Positions 4,161 through 57,599 of a stretch of DNA of 64,000 nucleotides are shown here, piece after piece (position 1 is the first letter of the stretch; the number at the start of each line of letters is the position of its first letter). Under the pieces are notes generated by a model that was given only the letters and a program-made list of their open reading frames with translations, was not told the origin of the DNA and searched no databases. The translations under genes were made by a program, and so were the position numbers. The DNA comes from an uncultured virus (IMG/VR IMGVR_UViG_2061766007_000877) (taxonomy: Duplodnaviria > Heunggongvirae > Uroviricota > Caudoviricetes). Where the stretch lies: the IMG/VR virus record IMGVR_UViG_2061766007_000877; one strand, written 5' to 3'.

Positions 4161-4705
4161 ATGCGTACACGTAAAGAAATTTTAGAATCACGTATTGCTC
4201 GTCTTGAGAAATTACTCGCTGCAAATAAACCAGTAAAGAATGAAGCATTAGATATTGATGAAGGTGAAATTGAATCCCTCGCTGAAGAAATTATGATGGA
4301 TGCTATTTCAGCAGATTATCGCTGGGGCAATGACGCACGTGGTCAGATTGATTTCATGCGTGAGTTTGACAAATTGGCAGATGGTCGTAATCCTGCATTA
4401 GTTAATGAAGTANNNNNNNNNNNNNNNNNTTGAATGTTTCACCACGTGAATTACGTCCATTTAAAGCCACTATTGCCCGTGTAGCTTCAGAATGTGCAGC
4501 TGACATTCTTGATGCTTATTGTGTTCCTGATGGTGATGCACCTGAACGCTGGGTAGAGTGGATGGATGATTTAGGTGTTGATCCTGATGATATGCCAGAA
4601 CGTTGCCGCAAGATTTATTTTGATGTTGTTGGAAGAAATGAGTGCGGCGGCCGCAGATGTGAATCACGTAAATTAAACCGTCGTAGTATGAAGCGACGTG
4701 TTTAG
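4161..4705 (+). CDS. LExRIxxLE-leader protein (acidic core, Arg-rich C-tail), putative head-packaged internal protein
   Basis: MRTRKEILESRIARLEKLLAANKPVKNE|A. ORFs 4161 and 4430 joined across the gap. AAGGAG RBS. Confidence 0.7.
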
Positions 4706-4743
4706 ATTAAAATGTGTAAGCTACTATAGCTAAATAAATAGTT

Positions 4744-4773
4744 AAACTCCAGTAGTTAATTCTATTGGGGTTT
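4744..4773 (+). terminator. Hairpin terminator followed by TGTATATAT
   Basis: AAACTCCAGTAG-TTAATT-CTATTGGGGTTT, then TTGTATATATT at 4776. Confidence 0.65.
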
Positions 4774-4853
4774 TATTGTATATATTCTATTGCAATGCTA
4801 AAGAGAACAGCTATTGCACTTATGCCTTTTAGCCAATTAGGAGTTTAAGAAAT

Positions 4854-7127
4854 ATGGCACCAAGAAAAAAGAAAGATGAATCTGATACTACAACATTGAA
4901 ACGCGGTGAGGCTTACGAGCATTACATTCCTGCCGNNNNNNNNNNNNNNNNNNNNNNNNNNNNNNNNNNNNNNTCATCTAATAAAAACTTATGATGAACT
5001 TAAAGCATTTTATGACAATGAGTTTAAGCCAAACTCTTTCTTTGCATGGGATACTGAAACAACCTCACTTGATCCTACACAGTCGGTTTCTCGTGGAGAT
5101 ATGGTTGAAGGAAAAATTGTAGGCTATTCATTTACACAGAACGGAAATGATGGTTACTATGTTGCTATTGACCATCCTGATGCTCATATAGGTTATAAAG
5201 GGTTAAAAGTTCTGTATGCAATGATTTGTAGATCAAGACTGCATATGCTATACAATGCAAGATTCGATATGCGGTTCCTTGAACACATGACTCCAGAGAA
5301 GTATGATTATACACCTGCACCTGATGAGAAGATTTATCCATTTGATCTTTCAAAGACTAAATACTTTGATGTTCAGTGTTCGGTTTGGTTAGCTGATACA
5401 AATATCCCAATGCCTTCATTGAAAAAGTCAGAAAAGCATTTTCTTGGTTGGAATCCTCCTACATTTGCAGACACAGTAGGTAATGAAACAAACTTTGGGT
5501 ATTTACCTGCTGAACAGGGATATCGTTATGCCTGTATTGACGCATTAGGCACATATCATTTATTCTTCAAGACAGAGAGATTTCTTGCTGAATCAGGTGC
5601 TGCAGGTAAACTTGATAATGAAGTTCTTTATCCTTTAATGAGATTAGAGAACACACCTGTTTACATTGATCATGATTATCTTGCATCTATGAAAGATGAT
5701 ATTCGTAATCACCTTAAAGAATTAAAAGAATATCTCTACGAGCAGGTTGGTGGTAATGAATATAATATCAGCTCAGGTCGTGAACTTGTTGGTGTGTTTC
5801 AGCAGTTAGGAATTGACACCGGTGCAAGAACTGCAACTGGTCAAATGAAAACTGATATTAAAACAATTGAGAATTATCAGGTTACACACGGCAGCAATGA
5901 ATATCTAAACAAACTTGTCGAATACAAAAAGCTGTTCAAATTTGACAATTCATATTTGGAAACGCTTTTGAAAATCTCATCGCCTGATGAAATGAAAAAG
6001 CACCCAATTAGATTTAACTATTTTACATGTCGTGTTCCTACTGGTCGTCTTGCATGTGGTACAGATGGCAAGAATACATTTTTCAGTCCTGTAAATTTCC
6101 AATCACTTCCAAAACCACACTCACATAATTATCATTGCCATAAAGCAACTGATGAACAGATCGCAAAAGGTGAAGATCTTTGCGGTTATATTTTTGATGA
6201 TAACCCAGAAGGCAGCCTCGGTTTAGTTGAAGGTCAGGATCCACATCTTAATGTTCGTAAATCAATTAGACCTCCTACTAATGATGCCGTAATAGTTTCG
6301 GTCGATATGAAAGCTGAGGAACTTCGTCTTGCTGCAAATGTGTTTAATGAGCCAACATGGATAAACGCATTTAATACAGGACAAGATGTTCATAAGATGA
6401 CAGCAATAAAGATCTTTGGTGAAGAGAATTATTGTAAAGAGGCTCGTAAGAAAGCAAAGACCGCTAACTTTGGAATTCTATATGGGTCATNNNNNNNNNN
6501 NNNNNNNNNNNNNNNNNNTTTCCTGATATGACACTTGAAGAATGTGAAGATTTCATTGATAAGTTCAAAGCAGCATTGCCTTCTATTGAAGCTGCACAGA
6601 GAAATGCTGTTAGGTTTGCAAAAAAGAATGGTTATGTTAAAACATATTTTGGCAGACCTCGTCGAGTTAAGTTCTATATCAACAGCCCAAGCCGTTCATT
6701 GCAAGGATTTGCAAAACGTACATGTAGCAACACTGTTGTTCAAGGATGTGCAGGTGACGCGTTGAAGTTGATGGTTGTTAGATTATGGAATGATTTGTTT
6801 ACAAAGTACTATGATAAAGGTGTAAGGTGGATTGGTACAATTCACGATGAGATCAATTATCTTGTACCAAAGAGTTTGCTCGATGAAGTTGTTCCAATTA
6901 TTATGCAATGCCAAACAATTAAACTTCCTGATTGGCCTGTACCGCTCCTCCCCGACCTATCAATAGGAAAATCTTTCGGTGAGTTGATTCCTTTTGAATA
7001 TGACTTTGATACACATAAATATAAACCTGCTGTTGAAGAAATGAAACATGACTCACATGAAGTTGTAAACGAACCTGTTGAAAGTTATGTTCCAGAGGTT
7101 GAAGACGATTACGATTATATGCAGTAG
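4854..7127 (+). CDS. DNA polymerase family A with 3'-5' exonuclease
   Basis: Exonuclease motifs WDTETT, YNARFD, YACIDA. Polymerase motif A VSVDMKAEELR, motif B RKKAKTANFGILYG, motif C TIHDEI. ATG at 4854 after AGGAG. Joined across gaps. Confidence 0.95.
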
Positions 7128-7136
7128 CCTCTTCAC

Positions 7137-7174
7137 ATGTAGTGATTTTATATCAAATTATAGAATCACTACAT
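7137..7174. repeat. Intergenic inverted repeat
   Basis: ATGTAGTGATTTTA...TAGAATCACTACAT with no clear U-tract. Confidence 0.55.
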
Positions 7175-7201
7175 ACAATCACTATGTGAGGTAAATAGGC
7201 T

Positions 7202-7510
7202 ATGTCATTAAGCAATCGCGATATTATAAAGTCAATTAAAGATGTGGGTCTATGTTTGCAATCAATGATAAAGACCCGTTATAACAAAAATGTGAAGCTT
7301 ATATTTACAACAGGTAAATATAAATCACTGTATGTTAGTTTCTATAAATCTCCGTATGTATATCAGTTCTACGTTGAAGATAGAAATGGGTATTATAACG
7401 TTTACCTGTTAAGAAATGAAAACATTGTTAGAAAAGATATGATAAAAAGAGAAGAACTGATTGAGAGATTTTATCAGAAGATGATTTACTTTTTCAGAAT
7501 AATTCATTAG
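7202..7510 (+). CDS. Hypothetical basic protein
   Basis: 102-aa ORF with GAGG RBS. Confidence 0.65.
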   Translation: MSLSNRDIIKSIKDVGLCLQSMIKTRYNKNVKLIFTTGKYKSLYVSFYKSPYVYQFYVEDRNGYYNVYLLRNENIVRKDMIKREELIERFYQKMIYFFRIIH

Positions 7511-7522
7511 GAGCATGTTAGT

Positions 7523-8570: not shown

Positions 8571-8606
8571 TATAGTTGTTTAACTGTTATATTGCAGTTA
8601 GTATTT

Positions 8607-8640
8607 AAGCTTAGTTAGTATCAATCTACTAACTAAGCTT
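8607..8640 (+). terminator. Hairpin terminator
   Basis: AAGCTTAGTTAGTA-TCAATC-TACTAACTAAGCTT followed by a T-run. Confidence 0.7.
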
Positions 8641-8667
8641 TTATTTTATCCTAAGGAGGATAAACAC

Positions 8668-11600
8668 ATGCCAAGGTTTGATTCTTCTGAACAGACTGTT
8701 ACTCCTGTATTTGACAGAGTAGCAACAAAAGTACTTGATAATATATATAAATACTTAAAAGATAATAAAGATTCTGGCCAGGATGATGGTAGACGAGAGA
8801 TAATTGAGCGTCTTGATAGATTAAACGATACAGCAGATGATGGTTTTACTGCAAGAGGTAGTAACGACCGTGCAACTCAGGCTGCACTAAAGGGTATATT
8901 AGGCAACCAGAAAAAAGAAATGGCCTCGAATGGTAAAGATAGAGCTACACAAAGAGCACTGTTCGGTAAGATGGACAACACAATGCGTAACTCATCAAAG
9001 ATGACCAGCGATGCTATTTCTAAAATGAGTGGCAAATTATTAGGTGCACTTGGCAGCTTAAAGAACTTCTTAGGTCAGCATCTAAATAGGTCAATACAGG
9101 CGGAGATGGAACTGCAAAAAGTGATGCGCTTAAACTTTTTAACGTCATCACAAAAGGATAAAGTAAACCAAATTGCACAAAATGTTGTAGGCACACAGCT
9201 TGGCGCAAATATTGGTAAAGAAGAGGTTACTCAGTATTTCAGTGAGCTAATCGCAGCAGGTAAAGATTTAGAGCTAATGGGTAGTGAGCAAGCAGGTGCA
9301 TTTGCAGCATTGCGTAAGATGGGTATTGATGAAAATAAAGCCTATACTTTAGCAATGAGTGCAAACGCAAAAGATCTTCAGAGAGTTGTTAATGCTGCAG
9401 CTAACCCTAAAGTAAGAGCGTCATTGACTGGTGCTATTAACGGCATGGAAGATTACGAACTTGCTGTTGGCGGTATAAGCAGGAATCTTAATAATTTAAC
9501 AGATGGCGCCGAGGCAGCTGCTAAGACATTAGGTACAACTGCAATAGCAACAGGTAAGTCAGCTGACATTGTTAGAGACTTTGCTTATGGTGCATCCGGT
9601 CAGTTAGAAAAAGTAAGCGGTAATTTAGCCGCAGTTGCTGGTGGTGTGCATCAAAGTGCGGATGAACATTTTAAGGCAATAGACAAAAGCCTTAAGTCAG
9701 CAGATGATATACAACGTCGTGCAATGGGTGCGATGGGTGATGAAATGATGGCGGCCCTTGCAAATGCTAGTGCTGATAAGGCTATGATGAGTGCAAAGGG
9801 TAATAAGACTGAGCAAGGATTAAGATCTAATAAAGAAAACGCGGCTGCACTTGCTACAAACACAAAAGATGGCCAGGTACAGCAATTCATTGATCAGTTT
9901 TGGGCTAATCTTGACAAGAAAACGGGCGGCAAGATTTCTGTAATAAACAGAAAACTTGATGAGTGGTTTGGTGGCAGCATAACAATAACACAGCTAGCAG
10001 GGGCAGTTGCAGGTTCATTGTTAATGCTTGGAAAGACAATCTTATCAGGTGGTCTTGTACTTGGTAAATTTATTCTTAATGGCGTTAAGAATGCTATAAG
10101 CGGTGCTAGTAACTTTATTAGGAAAGGCTTATCATCAATACCAAAGATTGCAACAGCTGTAAAAGATGGCATTGTATCTGTTGTTAAGGGTGTTAAGAAT
10201 GTTGTTGGTGGAGTAACATCAGCAGTTGGTAATTTAGGTACAAATATAAAGAATGGATTTAATGCTGCAACAGATAAAATAAAATCAATATCACAGGGTG
10301 TTAAAAGCAGCCATAACGATGAGCCTACATCGAAGTTAGGTAAAGTCGCAAGATCAATAGGTGACACATTAAAGACAGCAGGTAAAGTAACCGCTGCAGG
10401 TATTAAAGCAGCAGGTAATGCAGCAAAATCTGCATTAAAGTCAGCATCAAAAGGTTTCGGTTCTGCATTGAAATCAGCAGGAAAGGTTGTAGCAAAAGGA
10501 TTGAGGACTGCAGGTAGTGCAGCAGCAAAAGGTTTACGCACTGCAGGAAGATTAGGTAAAGCTGCAGGCGGCTTAGTTGGTGGCGCTGCATTATTAGGTG
10601 GTATATCAGCATTAGCAAAGAACATACAGTCAGAAGGCCCATCGTTTGTACGCGACATGATAAACACAGCGGTTGACTTTATTAAAAATGATTTGCCAAC
10701 TGTAATAAAAGCACTTATAGACGCTTTACCTGAATTAGTAACTGCAATCACAAATGAATTGCCAGGCATTGTTTCGATGTTCGTTGACAATTTACCGACA
10801 ATAATAAAAGCAATCACAGACGCGTTACCAAATGTTATATCAGCACTTACACAACAGCTACCAAGAATCATAACAGCATTGTGCAACGCACTGCCACGGG
10901 TTATTACTGCAATTGTTCAGAATTTACCAACAATAATAACAGCAATAGTAAATTCATTACCAACTATTATAACAGCTATTTGTGAGGCTTTGCCAACAAT
11001 AATTACTGCAATTATTGATGCTTTACCAAAANNNNNNNNNNNNNNNNNNNNGCACTCCCACAAATCATAACTGCTATTTGTGACGCCCTACCACAGATTA
11101 TTTCTGCAATTATTGATGCTTTACCAAAAATTATAATAGCAATATGTGAGTCATTACCAAAAATTATAGTGACAATCTGCGAAAAGATTCCTGATATTAT
11201 TACAGCAGTTATTAGCAAAATACCTGACATTATTGTTGCATTAGTTGAACACATTCCTGATATAGTAAAAGCAATAGTAACTGCATTAGGAAGTGGCTTA
11301 GGTAACATGATGGGCTCGATAGCTGACAAACTAGGTCTTGTTGACAAAGGTGGTCATGCTGTAGATAACTCTAAAACGCTTGCTGAACAAAAGAGAATAA
11401 ATGATATTGGTGTTAAACGTCGTAATGAATTAGCTAAGATGGATCAGTCGAAGCTAATGGGCATCATTACAGAATTAGCAAAGACGAACACAGATGTTGC
11501 AGCTAATTTAAAGAGCGGCGTGTATGACGGCAGATNNNNNNNNNNNNNNNNNAATTAGATGGGCTACTGCAAACCAAGATAAAGCCGTCACAATGAACGA

Positions 11601-30256: not shown

Positions 30257-30269
30257 AGGTGGGCATAGT

Positions 30270-39275: not shown

Positions 39276-39309
39276 CGTAGATTATTTATTTGTATTGGAG
39301 TTATTTATC

Positions 39310-41510: not shown

Positions 41511-42767
41511 ATGCGTCATCGTACTATTGAAGAAAGACTTCAGAGACTAGAAAGATATGTGTATATGATGCAGCATAGAAAGTTTGAAGGCGGTGCTGCA
41601 GGACACATGAGTCATATATATGATTATACAGAACTTACTCTACGAGATGTTAAAGGTTTAATACGTAATCTTTTCTCAGGAAAAATTGAAGCCACTGAAA
41701 AACTTGATGGGATGAATATACAATGCACAATGAATAATGAAGGCAAAGTTGTGTTCATTCGTAATAAAGGTGATCTTAATTCATTAAAGGGTGGCATGGA
41801 TGCAGATGATGTTGCTGCAAAGTGGGCAGGAAAAGAATCAATCTCAAAAGTATATATATCAGCCTATGAAACAATAGAGAAAGTTTTCAAAAAGATTGGA
41901 AAGAAATTCTTTAATCCTGATAGTAACACAAAGATTCTTGCAAATTGTGAATGTATCACTGCAGGCAGAACAAACATATTGCTATATGCAAACGCACAAG
42001 TTGATTTTCATAACCTATGGGTATATAAAAGAAATGATGAAAATAGTCAGTGGGAAAAAGATGATGTAACTACTGATGGGATCGAGGTTCTTGAAAAAGC
42101 GTGTGAAGATATTGATGGTGCACAGCTTACACCAAAGGTTATGATTAGGGTTACTGAAAAATCAGGTGCTTTGCTTGTTGATTACATAAAAAGAATTGAT
42201 GCAATTTTCAAAGAGGCAGGTTGTTCTGAACGAAGTACTATTGAAGATTACAAACGCGCAAGATTTGATAGTATTTGTAAAAGCAAGTACAAATGGATAA
42301 CTACAAACGAAGAAGGCATGGATGCACTTTACAACAGATGGTTCAATGATGATAAGTCAGTAAAACTAACTGTAATTAGAAAAATGTATGCAGACTATGC
42401 AGATGAACTTGCTAATGTAGATTATAAGAAAATTGTTGCTGAATGCATGAGACCACTTGATACATTCTTCAGTAGATTTGGCAATGCAATTATTTCATTA
42501 TGTGATGGTATTGTAAATGCCGGCGCTGAATCAGAGGTAATTGATGCTTTAAGCAATGATCTTGAAGAAGTTATAAATGAAGTTAGAGAAAAAGGCAGCG
42601 TTGAATTAAATGATAAGCTAACAACACAGCTTAATAGATTAGCTGAATTGGGAAATCAATTAAATGCAACAGAAGGTATCGTATTTAAGTATGATGGCAA
42701 ATTGATGAAGGCCACGGGATCTTTCGCCGCACTAAACCAGGCCCTTGGGTTAAAGTGGAGTATATAA
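41511..42767 (+). CDS. Leader-bearing RNA-ligase-like covalent nucleotidyltransferase
   Basis: Leader IEERLQRLE...RKFE|GGAAGHMSH. Motif I TEKLDG, RNKG, motif IV EGIVFK, motif V KLMK. Confidence 0.7.
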   Translation: MRHRTIEERLQRLERYVYMMQHRKFEGGAAGHMSHIYDYTELTLRDVKGLIRNLFSGKIEATEKLDGMNIQCTMNNEGKVVFIRNKGDLNSLKGGMDADDVAAKWAGKESISKVYISAYETIEKVFKKIGKKFFNPDSNTKILANCECITAGRTNILLYANAQVDFHNLWVYKRNDENSQWEKDDVTTDGIEVLEKACEDIDGAQLTPKVMIRVTEKSGALLVDYIKRIDAIFKEAGCSERSTIEDYKRARFDSICKSKYKWITTNEEGMDALYNRWFNDDKSVKLTVIRKMYADYADELANVDYKKIVAECMRPLDTFFSRFGNAIISLCDGIVNAGAESEVIDALSNDLEEVINEVREKGSVELNDKLTTQLNRLAELGNQLNATEGIVFKYDGKLMKATGSFAALNQALGLKWSI

Positions 42768-42768
42768 T

Positions 42769-44276
42769 ATGAACTATTACGAATCATTAGAACATCGTAT
42801 TTCTGATTTAGAAAGATTCTTTGAAGGTAAGAAAGATCTTGATGATTTGAGAAGTCATTTAGGAGATGACCTTTTTGATGCTTACATGCAGATTCGTAAT
42901 AAAATTCCTTCAGGAAGTGATCTTAATAAGCAGTATCCTAATTTTACAGTTGAAGATATTCTTGAAGATGAAAGACTATTTATTAAAAAGTACGTTAATC
43001 TTCGAAATAGCAATATTGTAACTGGTATAGGTGCTAGACTATTTGGCAAATATCCAAAAGAGGTATCGCAAGATTCAGTACACAACAATCCTACACAGTG
43101 GATGTACGATTATGACGATATGAAAAATTACGTTGTAAATACATTCAGCAATTTCAGAGAATTTGAAAAATTAAAGAAAGCTGATGTANNNNNNNNNNNN
43201 NNNNNNNNNNNNNNNNNNNNNNNNNNNNNNNNNNNNNNNNNNAGTCTAAACTAGAAGGTGCTGAAACCATTTATGACAAAGATGGTTGGAAGGTTATAAG
43301 AATCACTACATATAAGGCGGCAAGATTCTATGGCTCAGGTACAAAATGGTGTATCACTGGAAGATACGATGGTCAAGAAAATAGAGGCGCAAAATATTTC
43401 CGTGACTATATAAAAGATGAGAANNNNNNNNNNNNNNNNNNNNNNNNNNNNCTATATTAAAGGTAATAAGAAATGGTGTCTATTACAAAAAGTAGGTGGA
43501 AAGATTCATTCTATATGGAATGAAGAAGACGTTCCAGTGCTTGATAGAATTCTATATGATGCACCTGATTGGCCTCTTGATGTACCTAGAGTAAATTCAA
43601 AAGACATTATTGACATTCAAATGATTTCCGCTTTATATAGTAGCAATAAAGAACTTATACAGATGGCAATAGACAAAGATGCTGATCTAAATATGCCGCA
43701 AGGCGCATTTGAATCACCTATTCAAATGTACACAGCAGAGAATGAACCTGAACTCGTAAAGATGTTACTTGACGCTGGCGCAGATCCTGATTTAGGTGCA
43801 CCATTACAAAATCATTTTGGGTATAGTACAAACATTGAAATAGTAAAGGCTCTTTTAGATCATGGTGCAGATCCTAATATGTATGACACATACGGTGACT
43901 CTCCATTAGGGCCTGCTATTGCAGAAGGAAGTTACGAATTTGTTAAGCTGCTAATTGATGCAGGCGCTGATGTGAATCAGGATATAAATTGCAAGAGTGG
44001 TTCTTATTGTTATGAAATGCCACCTACTGCTCAAGCTATACGATGTAATGAATTAGACATACTGAAATTATTGCTTGATAATGGTGCATCTATACCTGAT
44101 ACATATAATGGAAAAGGAATTCTTAGTCTATGTCAGTCGCGTGAGATGAGAGACTTCATCAATTCATATTTTGACATGGCAGGNNNNNNNNNNNNNNNNN
44201 NNNNNNNNNNNNNNNNNNNNNNNNNNACACATTAGAATCTAGAATTAGAAAATTAGAGCAGTTACTTTATAAATAG
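42769..44276 (+). CDS. Leader + WC-domain + ankyrin repeat protein (paralogue A)
   Basis: LEHRISDLERFFE|GKKD. WKVIRITTYKAARFYGSGTKWCITG read at about 43286-43362. Ankyrin repeats (LLDAGADPD, LLDHGADPN, LIDAGADVN). Joined across gaps; end uncertain. Confidence 0.75.
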
Positions 44277-44286: not shown

Positions 44287-44832
44287 ATGAGAGATTTAGA
44301 AAGAAGGATTGCACAGCTTGAATCACTTGTTGCACGGTATCGTGGACACAAGACTCTAAATGAAGAAGAGCAAGAGCGTACTGATGTAATTAGAAAGGTT
44401 GGTAATTCATGGNNNNNNNNNNNNNNNNNNNNNNNNNNNNNNNNNNNNNNNNNNNNNNNNNNNNNCTTAAAGCGTATTGGGCAAACAAGCATGAGTGCAT
44501 GAAGCATAGGCATTGTAAATTAAAACTTGAAGGCTTCAGCAACGACGATGGCAAAGAATTGCTTCGTAACGTACAGCATTTCCTAATTAAAATATTTGGC
44601 CATACCTTGTATTTTGACCATTATACTGATAAGTCAGTTGATTTGTATTACAGAGGTGATCTTGTAGCAGAGCTTTTCTTTAAAGAGGCAACAAGAAATC
44701 AAAGAGAAGAAATTGTAATAATGCCTNNNNNNNNNNNNNNNNNNNNNNNNNNNNNNNNNNNTATCAAAAGAAGTGTCTGAATATGAATTGCAAGATTATT
44801 TGTCAGACTTAATTCTTGGTGATGTTGATTAG
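44287..44832 (+). CDS. Leader-bearing multi-segment protein
   Basis: MRDLERRIAQLE...TLNE|, VIRKVGNSW...LKAYWANKHE. Read across gaps to TAG at 44830-44832. Confidence 0.6.
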
Positions 44833-44842: not shown

Positions 44843-45988
44843 ATGAAATCATATTTAGAATCATTAGAAAGACGTGTAAGAATTCTTGAAGCATTATATA
44901 TTGAGGCGAAAAGAGATCAAGAAATTCTACATGACTTTCTTGGAGACGATTATTTCAACAAATATAATCTAATAAAGAACAAAATCAACGATCCTGAATA
45001 CAAAGACATTTATAGAATGATTAAAAAGGATCCAGATGAGGTAAAGAATTTTATTGATAGTGTTCAGTCAGAGCGTGATGTTCGTAATGCTAGAAAGTCA
45101 GAAGGTTCAAAGCTAATCTACTCTGATAATCTATGGAAAGTGTATCGCATTACAACTTATAGAGCTGCACGGATATATGGTGCTGGTACTAGATGGTGCA
45201 TTACTGGAAGGTATGGCGGACACGAAGAACGCGGTGAAGAATATNNNNNNNNNNNNNNNNNNNNNNNNNNNNNNNNNNNNNNNNNNNNNNNNNNNNNNNN
45301 NNNNNNNNNAAAGTTCTGTTTATTAAAGAAGCAGAACGGTGGCATAGATTCTATATGGGATGCACCGGACAATAAAATTGAACCTGAAGACATTCTTATT
45401 GAAGAACCAGAGTTCCCAACAGTGCCAGATGTGTTTACACCATCTAGCAATACAGCTACCATGTTTTCAAAAAAGAAGACAAACATTTCAACTGCATTTG
45501 AAGCAGGTCAAGATCCTAACGAAAGATGTGATGATAAGACGAAGGAATACTACGGATATACACCGTTAGAGTGGCACATGCACAATGCAAATTGGGATGC
45601 TGTAGATCTTGTAATAAGAGTTGGTGCAGAACCTACAAAGAATGTAGAATGGCAGAACTTTTATAAATGGAACATACCAAATTACTTACCTATTAGCTTT
45701 ATTACAAAGTATATAGACAAAACTGAAATGCTTGAATATGCAATGAAATATTCATCCACACCTGCAGTTCAGAACGCACTTAAATTAGGAGCGGACCCAA
45801 ATCGTAAATTCTCTGATGGATTAACTCCATTGCAATACGAAGTAAGCAGAGGATTTGAAGACGCAAGAATTGGCGTTGTTAAAGCATTATTAAAAGCAGG
45901 CGCTGTAGTCGATGATGCTTCTGTTGATAATGCTATGCAGTATTGTAAACCAGGGCTTGCAAAACTATTAAAAGAAACGTTAATGTAA
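44843..45988 (+). CDS. Leader + WC-domain + ankyrin repeat protein (paralogue B)
   Basis: MKSYLESLERRVRILEALYIE|AKRDQ. WKVYRITTYRAARIYGAGTRWCITG. Ankyrin-like GYTPL, LGADPN...GLTPL, LLKAGA. Confidence 0.8.
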   Translation: MKSYLESLERRVRILEALYIEAKRDQEILHDFLGDDYFNKYNLIKNKINDPEYKDIYRMIKKDPDEVKNFIDSVQSERDVRNARKSEGSKLIYSDNLWKVYRITTYRAARIYGAGTRWCITGRYGGHEERGEEYXXXXXXXXXXXXXXXXXXXXXXKFCLLKKQNGGIDSIWDAPDNKIEPEDILIEEPEFPTVPDVFTPSSNTATMFSKKKTNISTAFEAGQDPNERCDDKTKEYYGYTPLEWHMHNANWDAVDLVIRVGAEPTKNVEWQNFYKWNIPNYLPISFITKYIDKTEMLEYAMKYSSTPAVQNALKLGADPNRKFSDGLTPLQYEVSRGFEDARIGVVKALLKAGAVVDDASVDNAMQYCKPGLAKLLKETLM

Positions 45989-46060: not shown

Positions 46061-46507
46061 ATGAGAAGACTAACATTAGAAGAAAGAATTACCAGTCTTG
46101 AAAAACTAATTACAGCAAATAAGTCAGTAAAGAATGAAGCTGCTTTTGCTGATGTATTAGAACTGGATGATGACGAATACAGCGAATTAGCCGCCATGCT
46201 AAGCTCTATGGTCCCTGCAAAAATGCGTAAAGCATTACGTATGGGTGCTGATCCTGATATGTCATCTGTGAAACACAATCATGGCAACGGTTGCACCGCA
46301 CTTCGTTCAGCAGCTATCATGGGTGAGTATGAACCTGCTAGAATTTTAATTGAAGCAGGTGCTGATGTAAATGCAAAAGATACAGTTGGCAAAACACCTC
46401 TTGATTATGCTACTGCGAAAGGGTATGATGATCTTGTTGAGCTGTTACTCGCAAACGGTGCAAAGTCTGGCCGTGAGGTTCGTAGACGTCCTCGCCCTCG
46501 TCGTTAA
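46061..46507 (+). CDS. Leader + ankyrin repeat protein with Arg-rich tail
   Basis: LEERITSLEKLITANKSVKNE|A. GCTALRSAA, LIEAGADVNAKDTVGKTPLDYA...LLLANGA. Ends RRRPRPRR. Confidence 0.85.
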   Translation: MRRLTLEERITSLEKLITANKSVKNEAAFADVLELDDDEYSELAAMLSSMVPAKMRKALRMGADPDMSSVKHNHGNGCTALRSAAIMGEYEPARILIEAGADVNAKDTVGKTPLDYATAKGYDDLVELLLANGAKSGREVRRRPRPRR

Positions 46508-49635: not shown

Positions 49636-50373
49636 ATGAAAAATTCAAAATTCTTTACAATGATCTTTGCAATTATGGTTACAATTTGTTTTGCAGCTTG
49701 TGATGATAAAGATGACAACAAGCAGGAAACAAATACATGTGATCCCGCAACCTGCGAGATGGCTGAACACGCCACTGAAATGGGATGTGATGATGCAGGT
49801 CATTGTATTGTTAAAGCATGTGCTGATACATTCAAAGTAGCAGAAGATGCTAAATCATGTGAGGCTGATGCACCTGCTTGTATGTGTGATCCCGCCTGCA
49901 AAGACAATGAAGATTGTATTAAAGGTGATGGAGACAAATGCGAGTGTCGTGAAAAAGATAAACCAGCTGCATGTGATCCTGCTTGTGAAGATGGTAAAAC
50001 AAAATGTGAATGTACCAATGATGCTTGCGCGTGTGTTCCTGTAACTCCTACTCCAAATTGTGAGCCAGCGTGTGAAGATGGTAAGACAAAATGTGAGTGT
50101 ACAATGGATGCATGTGCTTGTGTACCTGTAACACCAGCACCTACGTGTGAACCTGCATGTAATGCTGAAACAGAAGACTGTCTTTGTGATGCTGACAAAT
50201 GTGAGTGTCGTGCAAAGGATGCTCAACCTGACCCTTCTGCAACAGAGGATGCTTGCCAAGATAAATCAGAGGATGATGCTTGCGGTGAGAACAAAACATG
50301 TCAGAAAGGTGAAGGTGATAANNNNNNNNNNNNNNNNNNNNNNNNNNNNNNNNNNNNNNNNNNNNATAGCTGA
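49636..50373 (+). CDS. Cysteine-rich repeat lipoprotein
   Basis: Signal peptide with lipobox FAA|C. Repeats CDPAC/CEPACEDGKTKCECT.DACACVPVTP. Confidence 0.85.
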   Translation: MKNSKFFTMIFAIMVTICFAACDDKDDNKQETNTCDPATCEMAEHATEMGCDDAGHCIVKACADTFKVAEDAKSCEADAPACMCDPACKDNEDCIKGDGDKCECREKDKPAACDPACEDGKTKCECTNDACACVPVTPTPNCEPACEDGKTKCECTMDACACVPVTPAPTCEPACNAETEDCLCDADKCECRAKDAQPDPSATEDACQDKSEDDACGENKTCQKGEGDXXXXXXXXXXXXXXXXS

Positions 50374-50482: not shown

Positions 50483-51832
50483 ATGAGATTACTAAAACGA
50501 TACCTTGAGGCAATAAGTACACAGGCTGCTTCATTAAGTCTATCAAATATTACAAGATTTTATTACAATTACATTAGAGAAAACTATTCAAAAGTTAGAG
50601 ATCAGATTGAAAGATCAGGTTATTACGTTTTAAAGAATAAGGTTTCTACTGGAAGTAGTAGTACAAATACAAAAGATATTTATATAGCAGCATATTTCAT
50701 TGACATTGGTCGTGCTGATGGGTGCAATATGATGTTGCAACAAAAGTATCACACTAACGCTGATGTAGAAGACACTGGCGGGTTNNNNNNNNNNNNNNNN
50801 NNNNNTAAAGTGTACGATTTGGACGATATTGAAGATTCAATCAAAAAGTCAGACATACGCTCAACAATTGAACATGAACTAACACATGCGTTTGACCACA
50901 CAAGTAAAAATGATAGGCTGTCAAAACAGAATGCCAATCCTGGTGTTGGCGAAACATTCTTATCAACATGTGCTTATCTTGGGTGTGCAAGACGTTCTGA
51001 GATTGGTGATTTACTTACTAATGATTTATTTACATTAGGGTCAACTTCAAAATGCGTTTATGCAATCAGCGTTATTATATACAAGCTGTTTACAATTACA
51101 GAGTTTAATGCACATCAGATGTCTGATTTAGAAGAGACACACAGCGTTGACATTAGAAAATCCGATAATGTCAAAAAGGCGCTAAAGAGAGATCTTATTT
51201 CAGATAGCAATATAACAAGAGAGATGCTCCGACAGGCTATTTCTGTTACACCTGAAATGTGCCCACAGTTATGGACAATCACTGGTAGAGTTCTTAAGTA
51301 CATGGGTTATAATATAAGCAGTGATTCACCAAGTGCTGTGTACAAATTCTTCATGACAAGAAGCGTTAAACTGTTTAACAAATTCTATTCAAAGAAACTT
51401 AAGAATCAGACAAAGTATATTATCTCAATAAAAGAAAAAGAAAATATAAAAAGAAATCTTATCGAGTGTATAGACAAAGATAAAATGAGAATTGGTGTTT
51501 CATTCTGGTTTTCACCAACAGGTAAATCTGATTCTTATCTTTGTAGAATTAGAACAATAAATGATAAGATTGCTTTAACAGTAAATCATAAAGCACAAAA
51601 GATATTTGGTAATGCAGATGCAATTTACAAACGAGCAATAAGTGCAGCTAATAACACGGCCTTTGAGTTTGCACTTGATAATCTTGTTGACATTATTGTA
51701 CAGTCACTTGAAAGAGCGTTTAATGAAATATCTTATGACCCTGTCTATGATATTACAACACCTCAAGATGAAGAACAGATAAGTGCATCAAATAAGATCG
51801 CTAATAGATTTGCTGATTTAGATTGGGATTAA
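50483..51832 (+). CDS. Putative zincin-like metallopeptidase
   Basis: IEHELTHAFD (HExxH) at about 50873 and downstream TEFNAH. Confidence 0.6.
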   Translation: MRLLKRYLEAISTQAASLSLSNITRFYYNYIRENYSKVRDQIERSGYYVLKNKVSTGSSSTNTKDIYIAAYFIDIGRADGCNMMLQQKYHTNADVEDTGGXXXXXXXXKVYDLDDIEDSIKKSDIRSTIEHELTHAFDHTSKNDRLSKQNANPGVGETFLSTCAYLGCARRSEIGDLLTNDLFTLGSTSKCVYAISVIIYKLFTITEFNAHQMSDLEETHSVDIRKSDNVKKALKRDLISDSNITREMLRQAISVTPEMCPQLWTITGRVLKYMGYNISSDSPSAVYKFFMTRSVKLFNKFYSKKLKNQTKYIISIKEKENIKRNLIECIDKDKMRIGVSFWFSPTGKSDSYLCRIRTINDKIALTVNHKAQKIFGNADAIYKRAISAANNTAFEFALDNLVDIIVQSLERAFNEISYDPVYDITTPQDEEQISASNKIANRFADLDWD

Positions 51833-51833: not shown

Positions 51834-52776
51834 ATGAGCTATTACAAATCATTAGAAAAGCGTATTGGTATTTTAGAATCCTATATCTTAGAAGGTAAGA
51901 AAGATCAAGAGGTATTAAATGACTTTCTTGGTGATGATTATTATAGCAAATATGCAGCAATAAAGAATAAGATATCGGATCCTGAATATAAAGACATCTA
52001 TAAACTTGTAAAGAAAGACCCTGACGATGTGAAAAACTATATAGACANNNNNNNNNNGACGTGCTGCATCTAAAGAGATAGGTGCTAGAAAGATTTATGA
52101 AGATTCTGATTGGGTTGTCTATCACATTACAAACTATAACGCTGCAAAGTATTATGGTAGAGATACAAAATGGTGTCTTGCTGGAAATTATGAAGGTCTT
52201 GAAGAAGTTGGATGGCATGAATTTGAGAAGTACAATAATCAAAATAACATCTACTTCTATATAAATAAACATACAACAAGAGAAAAGTATGCTGTACTGA
52301 AGAATAGGTACACAGACCGTGTAACAGATGTATATGATTCAGCTGATCATAATTTAGGAAACTCTGCTTACTATATAAATGTAGAATTGCCTTATGTTGA
52401 AGAGGTAGGATATAACACAGCTTCACAATTAGAGTTATACGACGCAATTAAAGAAGGCGATTTAGATCAGGTAAAAGATTGCTTCAGCAAAGATTTCGTA
52501 AACATGAAAGATCACCGCGGTGTTACACCTTTGATGATAGCTGTTATGAGGTCTTATGAAGATATTGCAGAATTTCTAATAAAGAACGGTGCAAATGTAA
52601 ATGCACAAAATAATGCAGGTGCAACACCTTTAATGTATGCTTGCTTTGAAAATAATTTAGACATGGTAAAGTTGCTTGTTAAGTATGGCGCTGATGNNNN
52701 NNNNNNNNNNNGCACACCTCTTACAAGTACTGAAGATGAAGATATTGAGCGGTTTTTAATTGATAATGGTGCATAA
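51834..52776 (+). CDS. Leader + WC-domain + ankyrin repeat protein (paralogue C)
   Basis: SLEKRIGILESYILE|GKKDQ. WVVYHITNYNAAKYYGRDTKWCLAG is in frame with the canonical ankyrins GVTPLMIAV and GATPLMYAC. Confidence 0.85.
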
Positions 52777-52777
52777 T

Positions 52778-53545
52778 ATGAAAAGAAAGAAATTAGAATA
52801 TCACAAAGAATACCCAGAAGCAGTGTACAAAAATATGGTCTATAAATGGTTTAATGATAACACATCTACATTGGGTGATGCAGATTTACAAAAGTTTGTA
52901 GATTTGTGCATGAGAGGAAATCTTACATTTCAGTGTGCTGATGAAATTGACATTGATGATCCTGATATTGACGTCATAGATCATTTGCTTATGGATATCG
53001 CATCAGAAAAGAATGATGAACTTGTAAATACTTATACAGACGAGATAGATTGGGATAATGACTATTTAGAAAAGTGCCATTATAAAAATTTAGAAACTAG
53101 AGTTGCTAAGCTAGAAATGAAATTATTACTTAGAAGTGTTATTAACATTACACCTGATGACTTTTTAGATAGAAGTATTGTTGAAAAGATTCGTAGCATT
53201 GTTTACAATAGACTAAAAAATACATGCTATGTTTCAGACATACGCAATGAGTGTTCAGAATATGATGATGCTACAGGCAAATTTATACGTCTTTTCCAGT
53301 TTGAAATTACAAATATAGCAGAAGAATGGGATGACGTTGATGAGTATAGCGAAACATGGGATGATATGGGCGGTTATGACGCTCTTGCAGAGGCTGAAGA
53401 TAGTAAAACTTATTTATTTTCAAATGATAACGGTAGTATTCTTGTAACATGCAGTGATCTTGATGGTTACATGCATGAGTTTGGTAGGTTTAAATCTGCA
53501 ATAGAAGCAGCCAATGCAATAGTAAAATCTAGAGATGTATATTAG
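52778..53545 (+). CDS. Acidic hypothetical protein with internal LETRVAKLE motif
   Basis: MKRKKLE|Y... with internal YKNLETRVAKLE at about 53081-53116. Confidence 0.65.
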   Translation: MKRKKLEYHKEYPEAVYKNMVYKWFNDNTSTLGDADLQKFVDLCMRGNLTFQCADEIDIDDPDIDVIDHLLMDIASEKNDELVNTYTDEIDWDNDYLEKCHYKNLETRVAKLEMKLLLRSVINITPDDFLDRSIVEKIRSIVYNRLKNTCYVSDIRNECSEYDDATGKFIRLFQFEITNIAEEWDDVDEYSETWDDMGGYDALAEAEDSKTYLFSNDNGSILVTCSDLDGYMHEFGRFKSAIEAANAIVKSRDVY

Positions 53546-53577
53546 TAACAACGAAAATATAATAAGGATAGCGGTGT

Positions 53578-54748
53578 ATGTATAGAAAGTATTATGAATC
53601 TCTTGTTAGACGTGTAAGATTTCTTGAAGCAATGATTTTTGAAGGGAAAAGAGATCAGGAAATTTTACAGAACTTTTTAGGCGATGATTATTATAATAAG
53701 TACCAACTAATTAAAAATAAAATCAAGGACCCTGAATACAAAGACATTTATAAAATGATTAGAATGGATCCTGATGAAGTAAAGAATTACATTGATAACT
53801 TCCAATCAAACACAGACATAAGACGATCTAACAAGCAAGGTGCTACAAAATTATATGAGGACGATGAGTGGATTGTTTATAGAATAACAACATATCCTGC
53901 CGCTCAATTATACGGAAAGAATACTAGATGGTGCATTACTGGAAGATATGAAGGCCATGAAGAACGCGGCGAAGAATACTTCTATAACTATATTAAAAAT
54001 AATAAGTTAGATGGTGGTTATTATTTCTATATAAATAAAAATGATCCATACACAAAGTTCTGTGTTCTTCAAAAAGATAATGGCAGGATACATTCTATAT
54101 GGGANNNNNNNNNNNNNNNNNNNCAAGTGTAGATCTACCAACTGACTTACCTGAGGTTGAAGGCGTTAATCTGAAGCGTGCAAAAACCAAGAAGGATTTA
54201 TTGATTAGAGCTATCAACCATGATGACGANNNNNNNNNNNAAATAAAGGATTAAATCCTAATACAGTAATTAAGAAAAGTTCTGCATTAGCTTTTGCTAT
54301 TGAAAAAGATAAGGTTCATGCTGTTAAAGCCCTTTTAGAATGCGGCGCTGATGCTGACGAGGCTAGCGCTGGCGGTTGGACTCTAATAGATGCAGCGTGT
54401 AGAAAAGCAGACCATAAAATTGCAAATGATATTGTTAGACTATTGATTAGACATTCTAACAATATAAGTGACGAAACATTTAATAGTGTATGTAAATTCT
54501 GTAATTACATAACAGTTAAGACATTGTTAGATTGTGGGTATACTCCAAACAATGAATCAATAGATAGTGCTACTCGTTTTATTTCATCTGAGACAGCACG
54601 AACAGTTGAGTTATTATTAAATGCTGGTGCTAATCCAAATGAGCGCGATAAGTTTGGTACTACTATATTATCTCGTTTAATGGTGTGGACTACTAAAGAA
54701 GCCCAGGCAGTTATTAAAGTATTGCGAGATCACGGTGCAGTTGAATAA
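53578..54748 (+). CDS. Leader + WC-domain + ankyrin repeat protein (paralogue D)
   Basis: YESLVRRVRFLEAMIFE|GKRDQ. WIVYRITTYPAAQLYGKNTRWCITG. Ankyrins LLECGADAD and LLNAGANPNERDKFGTT. Joined across gaps. Confidence 0.8.
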
Positions 54749-54775
54749 AGTAATTAAGTAGCCAACTGTACTGAC

Positions 54776-54823
54776 AAAGCCTTATTGGAGTATTATTAAA
54801 TCCATAAGGCTTTTGTTGTATAT
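54776..54823 (+). terminator. Hairpin terminator followed by TGTATAT
   Basis: AAAGCCTTAT...ATAAGGCTTT, then TTGTATATA. Confidence 0.65.
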
Positions 54824-54856
54824 AATAACTGCAAATTTTATTATGAGGAGTACAAA

Positions 54857-55888
54857 ATGAGAAATTTATTTGTAATTATATTATTTGCATTATGTTTTGT
54901 ATTACCAACAAACACATATAGTGAAACATTACCTCCACCGCAAGACAACGATCAACATGTAACACGACCATCAAATAATAACAGTCGTCCATCTACAGCA
55001 AGACCTTCAAATCATAATAATGATGAAGACCAGAATCAACGACCTGCAGTTAGTAGACCTACACAGAATAATCACAGACCTCCTGTGAGTAATGCACGAC
55101 CTAATAATTCAAAGCCGTCTAATAGCAATGCAAGACCCACTAGACCATCAAATAATAATCGTCCAGTAAATTATAATAGACCACCACATGCAGGTCATAA
55201 ACCTGGAGGTCCTCATGTAGTTGCAACACACAGTAGAACGTATTATCCTAGACCAAGAACATATTACACAAGTACATATTATGTAGAGCCTGCTGTTGTT
55301 TATACAGATAATTCGTATGTCGTTGTTGACGATACAGAGTCTGTCTCTTATGAAAGTTCAGGTAAATTTGGATTCGGTTTAAATGCACTTCTTGCAGTAA
55401 ACTCTTCTATAGGTGATATTACAAATTATGCCTCAGGCGGGTTAGGGTTATACATTAAGTTTAGACCAGTAAGATACTTCTCATTAGAATTACAGAATAA
55501 TTATTTATTTGGTGCATTACAATACACTGGATGGGACTCACAGAGTTATGCTAAAACACTATTTGGTTTAGGCGCAAGAATACACTTCCTTGACTATGGC
55601 AGCACTGACGTGTACGCAGCACTTGCAGGAACGGTGTCTGTATGGTCATACATTTCAGGGTACGATTATTGGTATGACAACTATACTTATATGAATGAGT
55701 ATGGGATTCAGTATGGTGGTCAACTAGGTGCAGGTGTTAGTTACATTGCAGGCTCATTAGAAATTGGAATGGATTTACGATATACAGTTGAATCTATACC
55801 TGATTTCGTACCTGGGTACTTTGACAAAGATTCAGACGGTGTAATTCATGGAATGTTACTAACATTGAATTTAGGATTCTCACTGTAG
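54857..55888 (+). CDS. Secreted outer-membrane beta-barrel protein with Pro/Arg/Asn-rich N-terminal extension
   Basis: Sec signal peptide, RP/NN-rich disordered region, then amphipathic strands (GGLGLYIKFR, FGLGARIHF, GGQLGAGVSY, MDLRY) and a terminal LTLNLGFSL strand. Confidence 0.75.
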   Translation: MRNLFVIILFALCFVLPTNTYSETLPPPQDNDQHVTRPSNNNSRPSTARPSNHNNDEDQNQRPAVSRPTQNNHRPPVSNARPNNSKPSNSNARPTRPSNNNRPVNYNRPPHAGHKPGGPHVVATHSRTYYPRPRTYYTSTYYVEPAVVYTDNSYVVVDDTESVSYESSGKFGFGLNALLAVNSSIGDITNYASGGLGLYIKFRPVRYFSLELQNNYLFGALQYTGWDSQSYAKTLFGLGARIHFLDYGSTDVYAALAGTVSVWSYISGYDYWYDNYTYMNEYGIQYGGQLGAGVSYIAGSLEIGMDLRYTVESIPDFVPGYFDKDSDGVIHGMLLTLNLGFSL

Positions 55889-55944
55889 AATATCTAATTA
55901 TTCGTGTATTATTTTAATCGTAAACATATATTTATGGTGAAAAT

Positions 55945-56194
55945 ATGGATAGAAATAAATTAGAAGCTAGAATTGCTTGTTTAGAAAAAGCTATAAAGAA
56001 TGAGCANNNNNNNNNNNNNNNNNNNNNNNNNNNTATTGTGAGGCTATAAATAAAGCACAGGATGCTGCATACCAGTTACAGTTGATTGGTAAACACGATC
56101 ATGGAGACATTGATGAAGCTAATTTCTGGGAAGATATTAGCGATNNNNNNNNNNNNNNNNNNNNNNNNCTGAAAGAGATTTTCCACAAATGTAA
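55945..56194 (+). CDS. Small leader-bearing protein (missed by the ORF track)
   Basis: MDRNKLEARIACLEKAIKNE..., YCEAINKAQDAAYQL..., ends ERDFPQM*. Broken by two gaps. Confidence 0.65.
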
Positions 56195-56215
56195 CATAAT
56201 GAGGAGATATATAAA

Positions 56216-56509
56216 ATGGATAAGAAATTAGAAGCAAGAATTGCTAGATTAGAAAAATTGATTAAGAATGAAGGGCGGTCTTATGTTTCACCACGTAGCA
56301 TAAGTCAAGACGGCAAGGAAGCTAGAAAAGAAATCATAAGAAGGGCCCAGCGTATTTTAGACGCTGTTAAAGATGAGTATAATGGTCGTAATATGTCATT
56401 CTCAACATGGATGCGTACACAGTGCTCATATCTTCAGGATGCTGCTGAGGCATATGAAGAAGCTATGAAAGATTGGGTAGACAGCGAAGAATATAACGAT
56501 ATGTTTTAA
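56216..56509 (+). CDS. Small leader-bearing protein
   Basis: MDKKLEARIARLEKLIKNE|G. GAGGAG RBS. Confidence 0.8.
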   Translation: MDKKLEARIARLEKLIKNEGRSYVSPRSISQDGKEARKEIIRRAQRILDAVKDEYNGRNMSFSTWMRTQCSYLQDAAEAYEEAMKDWVDSEEYNDMF

Positions 56510-56534
56510 TTGCATTTATGGGAGATAAAATAAA

Positions 56535-56915
56535 ATGATTAGACGTACAAATCGTAAACTTACATTAGAACAACGTGTTGCTCGTTTAGAAAACGCTTTA
56601 AAAGCAAACCGTACTTCACATCGTAAATTCGAAGATCACGGCCCTGTCAAAGATAGTCTACTTAATGATGCTGACGAACTTCGTGCCCGTCTTAAAATGA
56701 AAGGCGTATATGAACCAGAGGTCAAAGTTGATGGTGAAGACGTAGTCGTTACATTAGATTGGGATTATTTTGGCATTGTTAATTTCTATGTGACGTCTAC
56801 TGCAAGAGGATATCATGTGGAAAGTGATCAGGCTGATGTAGAAGATTTCGCAACATTAGATCGTGTTGCAGAATATATTGCTGATAAAGACTACGAAGCA
56901 GCAATGGATTTATAA
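56535..56915 (+). CDS. Small leader-bearing protein
   Basis: LTLEQRVARLENALKANRTSHRKFE|D. Confidence 0.8.
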   Translation: MIRRTNRKLTLEQRVARLENALKANRTSHRKFEDHGPVKDSLLNDADELRARLKMKGVYEPEVKVDGEDVVVTLDWDYFGIVNFYVTSTARGYHVESDQADVEDFATLDRVAEYIADKDYEAAMDL

Positions 56916-56935
56916 TTCATTATATGAGGCTTAAG

Positions 56936-57190
56936 ATGGATAAGAAATTAGAAGCAAGAATTTCTAGATTAGAAAAAATGCTTTCTAGAAAGAATGAGTC
57001 TATAGAAATGTCACCAGCAGAAATAAGAGCAAAGCAGGCTATAGAAAATGCAATTGATGCTTTAAATGAGGCGGAAAAAGCATGCCATGCAATTGATCTT
57101 GATGATATGTGGTCGTCTAATAACTGGGCTAAGTTAGGACGTGACTGTGAAGCTGCATTAAGCTATCTACCACGACCTGGAGATTTTTAG
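56936..57190 (+). CDS. Small leader-bearing protein
   Basis: MDKKLEARISRLEKMLSRKNE|S. Confidence 0.8.
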   Translation: MDKKLEARISRLEKMLSRKNESIEMSPAEIRAKQAIENAIDALNEAEKACHAIDLDDMWSSNNWAKLGRDCEAALSYLPRPGDF

Positions 57191-57228
57191 TAGTCAAGTT
57201 AATTTAGATTATACTTATAGAGGTAATT

Positions 57229-57599
57229 ANNNNNNNNNNNNNNNNNNNNTAGAACAGCGTATTACTCGTCTCGAAAGATTACTACAGTGTGATAATAAAT
57301 CCTGTAATAAACACATGAAGTTTGAAGCACGTGAAGCTCTCGACATTGATGGTGATGTAATTACACAGTTCAGTTGGGTAATAGATGCTGACGGTGAAAA
57401 GTGGAAAGTTATTAAAGTAGCTCCACTAGATGTGATGCTCAATAAAGCGTCTTTTGATAATCGTAGAGAAGTTTCAGAATATATAAATGATAATCATTTA
57501 TATGATCGTAATCTAATGCAGCGTACTGTGGTACTTATGCGATCAGATGACGGCACACAGGTTTTATGCCTAGAGCCTGAAATATTAGAGATAGTGTAA
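57229..57599 (+). CDS. Small leader-bearing protein (start at the N-gap)
   Basis: LEQRITRLERLLQCDNKSCNKHMKFE|A is in frame with ORF 57315. GAGG RBS at about 57220. Confidence 0.7.

Follow-up and report, generated by a model that had tools for sequence, protein, structure and literature searches.

The 64,000-nucleotide stretch of the uncultured virus IMGVR_UViG_2061766007_000877 (IMG/VR; Caudoviricetes), called the window below, encodes 12 diverse proteins that begin with the same leader peptide, and this leader is probably a capsid-targeting propeptide cut after a glutamate, a long form or variant of the capsid-targeting sequence (CTS) of phage T4. It is a module of 17 to 47 residues (19 to 33 in the window, 17 to 47 in homologues of the ligase-like protein described below), composed of a two-heptad amphipathic helix (L-E-x-R-I-x-x-L-E-x-x-L) and a short, often basic spacer ending in Glu. 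L1, I5, L8, and L12 fit heptad positions d, a, d, and a, with R4 at g and E9 at e, a register taken from the sequence only, the helix itself coming from structure models. All 12 N-terminal copies listed in a first-pass annotation of the window consist of Met, 3 to 12 residues, [LI]-[EV]-x-R-[IVL]-x-x-L-E, and a 3- to 17-residue spacer ending in the Glu named there, and a gapped 13th copy proved real, its start being masked by a run of Ns (57230-57249). A looser pattern matches 15 times on the + strand and 0 times on the - strand; these matches comprise the 12 N-terminal copies, one C-terminal copy (44232), one internal copy (53090), and one in a short nongene open reading frame (ORF) (26370).

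Motif counts cover the window and four related viral contigs, G001 to G004, with a total of 516,182 residues in six-frame segments. G001, reached through the ligase-like protein, is an IMG/VR contig of 204,068 bases that is rated 95% complete and is syntenic with the window, having a match for 62 of the 87 window ORFs. The strict motif occurs 83 times in this set, compared with a mean of 2.4 and a maximum of 7 in 50 residue shuffles. Most copies (53/83) lie no more than 16 residues from a Met and count as N-terminal, another 19 are close to a C-terminus, and 11 are internal; by inspection, 2 of the 19 C-terminal copies are truncated N-terminal leaders and 2 of the 11 internal copies are N-terminal leaders behind an open upstream frame. 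Clustering of the 55 leader ORFs by cargo gives 30 groups, the largest (17 members) being held together by ankyrin repeats, and about 30 unrelated cargo families stand behind the leader in this clade of uncultured myoviruses, which have genomes of about 200 kb and T4-type head genes. A blind all-against-all comparison of the G001 N-termini likewise yielded a 14-member cluster in which 26 of 27 links lack similarity in the rest of the protein. With its 53 N-terminal copies and 30 cargo clusters, the leader is a short N-terminal peptide common to otherwise unrelated proteins, as are T4-type CTSs. Eleven further loci were reached via the G001 capsid protein; the relatives G005 and G006 have capsid-protein identities of 36 to 37% (G005, at 37%, is rated 96% complete). 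A scan of relatives with a leader profile, as the first-pass annotation had proposed, gave 19, 6, and 15 matches in G002, G003, and G004, no match in G006, a single weak match in G005, and none in Listeria phage LIS04. A blind search for any other common N-terminal leader in G005 found none.

The leader is conserved at the level of the peptide and not of the DNA. Within the window, the invariant Arg is encoded by CGT six times, AGA five times, and AGG once, and the invariant Leu by TTA six times, CTT five times, and CTA once; the nine core codons (27 bases) have a mean nucleotide identity of 64%, and one-third of the codons for identical core residues differ. The leader is therefore a portable N-terminal module under protein-level selection, which bears out the first-pass view of a modular tag on diverse, unrelated proteins. 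Some gene fusions and breaks do fall at leaders: a C-terminal coil in G001 (98659-99102) directly precedes the next leader gene, and the matching G004 pieces are fused, while a 578-residue G001 protein (191120-192856) consists of a leader, a domain, a degenerate leader, and a WC/ankyrin part. Such joints are what a recombination module would leave, that is, a short homology for cassette swapping whose peptide has no function of its own. The core codons, differing as they do between CGT and AGA or TTA and CTT, are so diverged as to be unfit for homologous exchange and are typical of selection on the peptide, and we consider this explanation highly improbable.

The window leaders, all on the + strand, precede several kinds of cargo. 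An RNA-ligase-like nucleotidyltransferase with a KLDGMN motif (gene 41511-42767) has a 26-residue leader at 41511..41588 ending RKFE/GGAAGHM, the slash marking the border after Glu. Four WC-domain proteins follow, three of them with ankyrin repeats: a diverged WC paralogue (gene 42769-43254; 19-residue leader at 42769..42825, RFFE/GKKD), a WC/ankyrin protein (gene 44843-45988; 21 residues at 44843..44905, LYIE/AKRDQE), and two WC/ankyrin genes split by N runs, one from 51834 to ~52776 (20 residues at 51834..51893, YILE/GKKDQE) and one from 53578 to ~54748 (22 residues at 53578..53643, MIFE/GKRDQE), the latter 91% identical to G001 189861-191057. The gene at 44287-44780, whose frame is broken by the N run 44413-44465, has a 26-residue leader at 44287..44364 (TLNE/EEQ), and the G001 homologue of its product (193983-194864) has a weak match to Pol-beta-type nucleotidyltransferases. 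An ankyrin-repeat protein (gene 46061-46507) has a 26-residue leader at 46061..46138 (VKNE/AAF). Six small acidic proteins without a family complete the set: the product of gene 4161-4705, with its frame broken by the N run 4413-4429 (leader at 4161..4244, MRTRKEILESRIARLEKLLAANKPVKNE/ALDID); that of a small gene body cut by the N runs 56007-56033 and 56145-56168 (20 residues at 55945..56004, IKNE); those of genes 56216-56509 (19 residues at 56216..56272, IKNE/GRS), 56535-56915 (33 residues at 56535..56633, RKFE/DHG), and 56936-57190 (21 residues at 56936..56998, RKNE/SIE); and that of the 13th copy (57229..57326, gene end 57599), which is readable as ..EQRITRLERLLQCDNKSCNKHMKFE/AREALDIDGD. 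In addition, gene 50483-51832 begins with a degenerate short leader (50483..50509, MRLLKRYLE/AIS), and its G002 orthologue has a full coil (LERRLSILERRMIE/AIGS). The C-terminal copy, LESRIRKLEQLLYK-stop (44232..44273), closes an ankyrin gene starting at 43417 whose frame is shifted by the N run 44184-44226. The internal copy, LETRVAKLE (53090..53116), falls at residue 111 within ORF 52760-53545, whose upstream domain precedes an in-frame leader and a WC domain in some database homologues. The claim that similarity stops at the Glu outside the four WC/ankyrin paralogues held for the nonparalogous cargo and failed for the 46061 protein, which is linked to those paralogues via ankyrin repeats.

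The model domain of the ligase-like protein resembles RNA ligases (T4 Rnl1, Foldseek E value of 3e-4, with TM-scores of only ~0.2), and a tblastn search with a short-leader homologue against phage records returned three distant matches and no cultured close relative. A fold search with the WC/ankyrin model was filled by matches to the ankyrin repeats (residues 167 to 398). A protein atlas gave only unnamed viral clusters, in one of which 25% of the members carry a weak PcfJ lead. The corresponding region of G001 lacks the small leader genes found at 55.9 to 57.6 kb, a turnover that fits accessory genes under rapid change.

The head maturation of the relatives is T4-type as judged from their genes, since G001 encodes a gp23-family capsid protein (55002-56495; PF07068, E value of 1.4e-35), directly upstream of that gene a Peptidase_S77 protease (56488-57501; PF03420, E value of 5.6e-14) that aligns to the T4 gp21 structure 5jbl (E value of 2e-5) and retains the aligned His and Ser positions, and a T4-type, gp20-like portal (74046-75515; Portal_T4, E value of 3.1e-36). 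A gp21-family protease and a gp23-type capsid protein are therefore present in the same phage. Capsid N-termini are readable for 11 of 12 loci; in 9/9 close relatives, the N-terminal segment closes near residue 54 with [MV][KR]NE/[SA], and in the two distant ones, it closes with ANE/S and VNE/G. The capsid [KR]NE end lies 22 residues before a block that aligns with T4 gp23, in which the Glu65 site lies 31 residues before the same block. The leaders end in a motif with a putative P1 Glu, like that of the capsid segment, and these ends are predicted cleavage sites: in 26 of 57 leaders, the coil is followed by [KR]NE within 18 residues, against a background of 1.0%, and in 33/57, it is followed by NE, against 7.1%; hydrophobic-x-E ends 20 more of the 57, and 4 fit neither pattern. 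KNE stands out by its location: it closes leaders and the capsid N-terminal segment and occurs in two head-cluster proteins. During prohead assembly, the leader helix would hold the cargo on the assembly core, and the gp21-family serine protease would cut after the Glu of [KR]-N-E or hydrophobic-x-E, just as it would cut the N-terminal segment of the capsid protein after the same [KR]-N-E. The freed cargo would then stay in the head and enter the host with the DNA.

The window itself encodes a relative of this protease, a 146-residue paralogue of its N-terminal part (58740-59180, + strand; 31% identity to residues 22 to 159 of the G001 protease). It is probably inactive, because it reads GELNPN where the G001 protease has the catalytic-His stretch GEGGHPE, and G001 lacks a copy in the corresponding position. 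Several HNH/homing-endonuclease genes lie within the G001 head gene cluster (52848-54946, 72601-73908, and 77103-78203).

The border at the Glu is seen in orthologues as well. Across six orthologue sets, the spacer length varies, the Glu is fixed, and conservation starts directly after it. In the ligase-like family, a Glu directly precedes GG[AQ]xGH in 120/120 of the best homologues, of which 67 have the coil (17 to 47 residues, 6 of them in tandem), 51 have only 2 to 33 residues ahead of the motif, and 2 have an upstream domain. In the WC family, for which the anchor pattern caught 95 of 120 homologues, the Glu is at the border in all 95, with a recognizable coil in 77. The AlphaFold2 model of the window ligase-like protein (predicted local distance difference test score [pLDDT] of 91.4) has a helix at residues 6 to 21 (pLDDT of 66 to 70), a stretch below a pLDDT of 50 at residues 22 to 31, which contains E26/G27, and a folded domain from about residue 32.

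A number of observations weigh against a cleaved capsid-targeting propeptide. The Glu before GG in the ligase-like family is equally invariant in the 51 coil-less forms and in the 2 with an upstream domain; a residue that stays fixed without the coil, and even when its segment is internal, may have a structural role in the domain. The WC/ankyrin model (pLDDT of 91.2) has residues 2 to 35 as one continuous helix (pLDDT of 70 to 81), which would place the proposed cut inside a helix. The overall proteome shows no excess of KNE (24 observed versus 20.6 expected), and because the leaders are kin, binomial P values for the end motif overstate their independence. The small cargo proteins (130 residues or less after the predicted cut) are acidic, with an isoelectric point below 6 in 21/22 and a median of 4.4 (62/111 among small G001 proteins), whereas the T4 internal proteins are described, in the T4 accounts that treat them, as basic. 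The window itself contains no head genes, all head-gene evidence coming from relatives, and no member of the clade is in culture; among 50,697 phage records, the capsid protein of Listeria phage LIS04 comes closest, at only 31% identity. Finally, 30/83 motif copies lie away from N-termini, which makes the coil a general module rather than an address tag alone. The first-pass proposal of capsid targeting and protease maturation is accordingly supported in part, by the gp21-family protease of the relatives, the common [KR]-N-E end, the Glu border, and the coil on head-cluster proteins, and its cleavage element is weakened by the continuous WC helix and the ligase-like Glu that is invariant without a coil.

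Several of these points would suit a general oligomerization tag, a short coiled coil through which many phage proteins, such as host-takeover or antidefense factors, dimerize or trimerize in the infected cell without packaging or cleavage. Its heptad, with the conserved Arg at g and Glu at e, looks like a self-pairing zipper; the 30/83 internal or C-terminal copies and the coil that runs on into the WC domain in the model would be natural for it, as would the tandem leaders with two coils before the Glu, found in G001 at 131164-131817 and in 6/67 coil-bearing ligase-like homologues (database proteins P0007, P0019, P0041, P0044, P0053, and P0058). We nevertheless regard it as unlikely, since it leaves unexplained why 53/83 copies lie within 16 residues of a start codon, why a spacer of variable length ends in the [KR]NE of the capsid segment, why an enzyme family that is coil-less elsewhere gains the coil in this clade only, and why the motif is present on the prohead protease and two head-gene-cluster proteins. 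If each coil is a docking unit for capsid targeting, tandem coils may tune the loading.

The ligase-like domain is also found fused behind a cytidylyltransferase-like domain, in L076, L077 (3001-4158), P0074, P0075, and Microcystis phage Mel-JY01 (11948-13156), and the fusion junction, ..YLNMILE/GGAAGHM, is the segment that is N-terminal in the unfused forms. The 10- to 13-residue N-termini of distant ligase-like homologues (e.g., MKDLYTYLIE/GG) were considered as T4-type CTSs replacing the coil; the same segment is internal in the L076 and L077 fusions, and these short N-termini were therefore not counted as evidence of cleavage.

The coil motif recurs in the head gene cluster. Shortly downstream of the capsid gene, G001 to G004 share two conserved genes whose products end in the coil (4/4 leader-bearing contigs). 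One is an acidic protein of 143 to 168 residues ending ..SLE[ED]RLAALERRFTE-SRRR.., with a long Glu-rich tract and, toward the N-terminus, one to three KNE/S sites; its composition is reminiscent of the helix and acidic tail of T4 gp67 and of the basic end of gp68. The other, of 309 to 317 residues, ends ..LxRR[VIL]xxLExL[YF]I[NR]R.., has a conserved internal KNE, and has an ending close to the leader of the WC family, as in G001 YYESLLRRVTRLESLYI. In G001, two HNH/homing-endonuclease genes separate the gene of this longer protein from the capsid gene. The protease likewise has FESRIRTLD right after the catalytic domain in 6/6 close relatives aligned and AFESRM in two distant ones. G005, which lacks the leader family, has no homologue of either the acidic or the 309- to 317-residue coil-bearing protein, so that the leader family co-occurs with the two proteins in 4/4 contigs with the leader and 0/1 without it. 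Neither protein has a Pfam match at an E value up to 0.01, and a comparison by hhalign found no homology to the T4 scaffold protein gp22 (a probability of 0.1 for each), a point against the capsid-targeting reading. From gene position, composition, and KNE sites, we infer that both are core or scaffold proteins.

The presence of the coil on conserved head-cluster proteins agrees with docking of the leader on the scaffold or core. A g-e' salt bridge is the classical pair of parallel zippers, and this heptad pattern leads us to propose coil-to-coil docking on the core. More speculatively, the leader could form a parallel coiled coil with the motif of the protease, the acidic 143- to 168-residue protein, or the 309- to 317-residue protein, in which the invariant Arg (g) and Glu (e) would form interhelix salt bridges. 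The leader could even duplicate a coil by which the prohead core coheres, the R(g)/E(e) two-heptad motif being common to the protease, the acidic gp67/gp68-like protein, and the 309- to 317-residue protein, so that cargo would enter by pairing with these helices and be released by the cut after [KR]-N-E; we put forward this scaffold mimicry only tentatively.

Both coil-bearing proteins are encoded among head-tail connector genes, and of the leader genes themselves, gene 4161 adjoins tail genes of the window and three in G001 (102860-108039) adjoin the large terminase gene. The leader might then address its cargo to another site, such as the tail lumen, baseplate, neck, or an intracellular assembly site, with a partner other than the head core. 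This is rather improbable given that the protease itself has the motif and that the leader ends in the motif of the capsid N-terminal segment; in addition, none of the 190 G001 proteins in a PHROGs scan (103 at E values up to 1e-3 and 87 at up to 1e-5) was described as a phage-nucleus shell, tubulin, or virion RNA polymerase. Capsid targeting thus remains the reading that we favor. On the timing of leader gene expression, the T4 late-promoter octamer TATAAATA has 22 matches versus 11.9 expected and is uninformative because it lies mostly inside genes, and the upstream regions, read by eye, showed Shine-Dalgarno sites and no common promoter.

According to the sections of the T4 literature that deal with head assembly, 10- to 19-residue N-terminal CTS propeptides target diverse internal proteins to the core, and gp21 cuts after Glu, removing the CTS from the internal proteins, Alt, and gp24 and 65 residues from gp23 (PMC9026906, PMC5694885, PMC3012670). 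The internal proteins are presented in two of these accounts as diverse defense proteins with only the CTS in common (PMC3012670, PMC9026906). The T4 review, where it treats the CTS, already states that it may allow T4-like phages to load varied proteins and considers its recognition of the prohead core still unsettled (PMC9026906). Like the CTS of IPI to IPIII, Alt, and gp24, the leader is an N-terminal add-on on otherwise unrelated, fast-changing proteins, and it ends in Glu, often after a hydrophobic-x pair comparable to the L/I-x-E of T4. The clade also resembles T4 in having a gp21-family protease, a gp23-like capsid protein, and a gp20-like portal, known here from genes alone, and in having a capsid protein whose N-terminal segment ends in the end motif of the leader. 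Unlike the T4 CTS, the leader has 17 to 47 residues rather than the 10 to 19 (20) that the T4 length criterion allows, and for this reason we call it a variant and not a CTS member in the narrow sense. Its core is a two-heptad coiled-coil motif that is absent from T4 gp24 (MAKINELLRE) and Alt (MELITELFDE), its favored end is [KR]-N-E, copies of its motif occur on the protease and two head-cluster proteins as well as in tandem and internally, and its cargo includes ankyrin-repeat proteins and an RNA-ligase-like enzyme.

Other phages offer partial parallels. In phiKZ, 201phi2-1, and SPN3US, propeptides of head or ejection proteins are cut after Glu by a diverged gp21-like protease and are thought to target proteins into the prohead (PMC5694885). 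As is reported for SPN3US (PMC5694885), the window has a diverged protease paralogue (58740-59180). Unlike the leader, the phiKZ-type propeptides are often more than 100 residues long, have the motif A/S/G-x-E, and are not described, in the portion of that source dealing with them, as one common portable motif. The phiKZ-type phages also have virion RNA polymerases, for which the scan of G001 had given no counterpart. In P1, the N-terminal 30 residues of DarB, an antirestriction protein, suffice to send a reporter into a myovirus capsid, as stated in the section on this signal (PMC9024508). The leader resembles that signal in being N-terminal and putatively capsid targeting, whereas the P1 Dar proteins have no common consensus and their cleavage is not reported in that section (PMC9024508). 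An open-access full-text literature search returned no paper linking a coiled-coil leader to capsid targeting. The cargo-loading peptides of encapsulins are short and portable and load varied cargo into an HK97-fold shell; they are C-terminal and bind the shell directly, and, to our knowledge, they are neither cleaved nor viral.

The leader is long enough to contain a recognizable structure motif, and the same motif on candidate partners turns docking into a concrete, testable hypothesis. With sequence as the only input, the tag would flag dozens of candidates for carriage in the virions of an uncultured clade; tagged proteins make up 67 and 77 clusters in the homologue lists of the ligase-like and WC cargo families, respectively. 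By analogy with T4, the cargo would serve as an injected arsenal, and many of the tagged proteins may counter host defenses at injection. If scaffold mimicry is true, any protein with a tag of about 20 residues would be loaded, including fusions with the tag between modules, and the clade would have a large exchangeable injected set of ankyrin-repeat binders, an RNA-repair-type ligase, nucleotidyltransferases, and acidic, mimic-like small proteins. A natural tag with its cut site could also become a protein-loading handle for engineered phages.

All long ORFs of the window are on the + strand, its G+C content is 32 to 37%, and Pfam and PHROGs matches indicate a phage with a contractile tail. 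These include pieces of a tail sheath (638-3300), DNA polymerase A (4906-7127), a tape-measure-like protein (8668-11070), a glucosaminidase (11805-13346), a gp25-like baseplate wedge protein (17744-18094), a tail-fiber assembly protein (30231-30695), and thymidine kinase and NrdD (39295-41432), all on the + strand. Two glycosyltransferase-family genes (24966-26211, +) lie within the tail-fiber/baseplate block, and ankyrin-repeat genes and genes without an assigned family form a block from 41.5 kb onward. The window contains 56 N runs (e.g., 4413-4429, 6491-6518, 40608-40644, and 54105-54123) across which the reading frame is not kept, so that the sheath, polymerase, NrdD, and several leader genes seem split at the masks, their G001 counterparts being single ORFs; the leader genes at 4161, 44287, 51834, 53578, and 55945 appear truncated in this way. 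A near-identity DNA search with window positions 41 to 58 kb against the 50,697 phage records gave no match.

A strong GGAGG-type ribosome-binding site precedes almost every window gene, and the cultured phages closest by capsid protein have Listeria, Bacillus, and Streptococcus as hosts. The window phage itself probably infects a low-G+C Gram-positive bacterium. The window also encodes a predicted lipoprotein (49636-50373, +; ..ICFAAC/DDKDD), whose lipobox had first suggested a Bacteroidota host, an assignment that was set aside given the GGAGG-type sites and the Gram-positive-infecting capsid relatives. G001 carries genes annotated as alpha-glucosyltransferase, thymidylate-synthase-like protein, dCMP deaminase, amidoligase, and DNA methyltransferase (160007-165395 and 179098-179739), and these DNA-modification-type genes suggest that its DNA is modified. 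In T4, the injected protein IPI* counters a nuclease that attacks modified DNA, and injected antirestriction cargo would fit such DNA.

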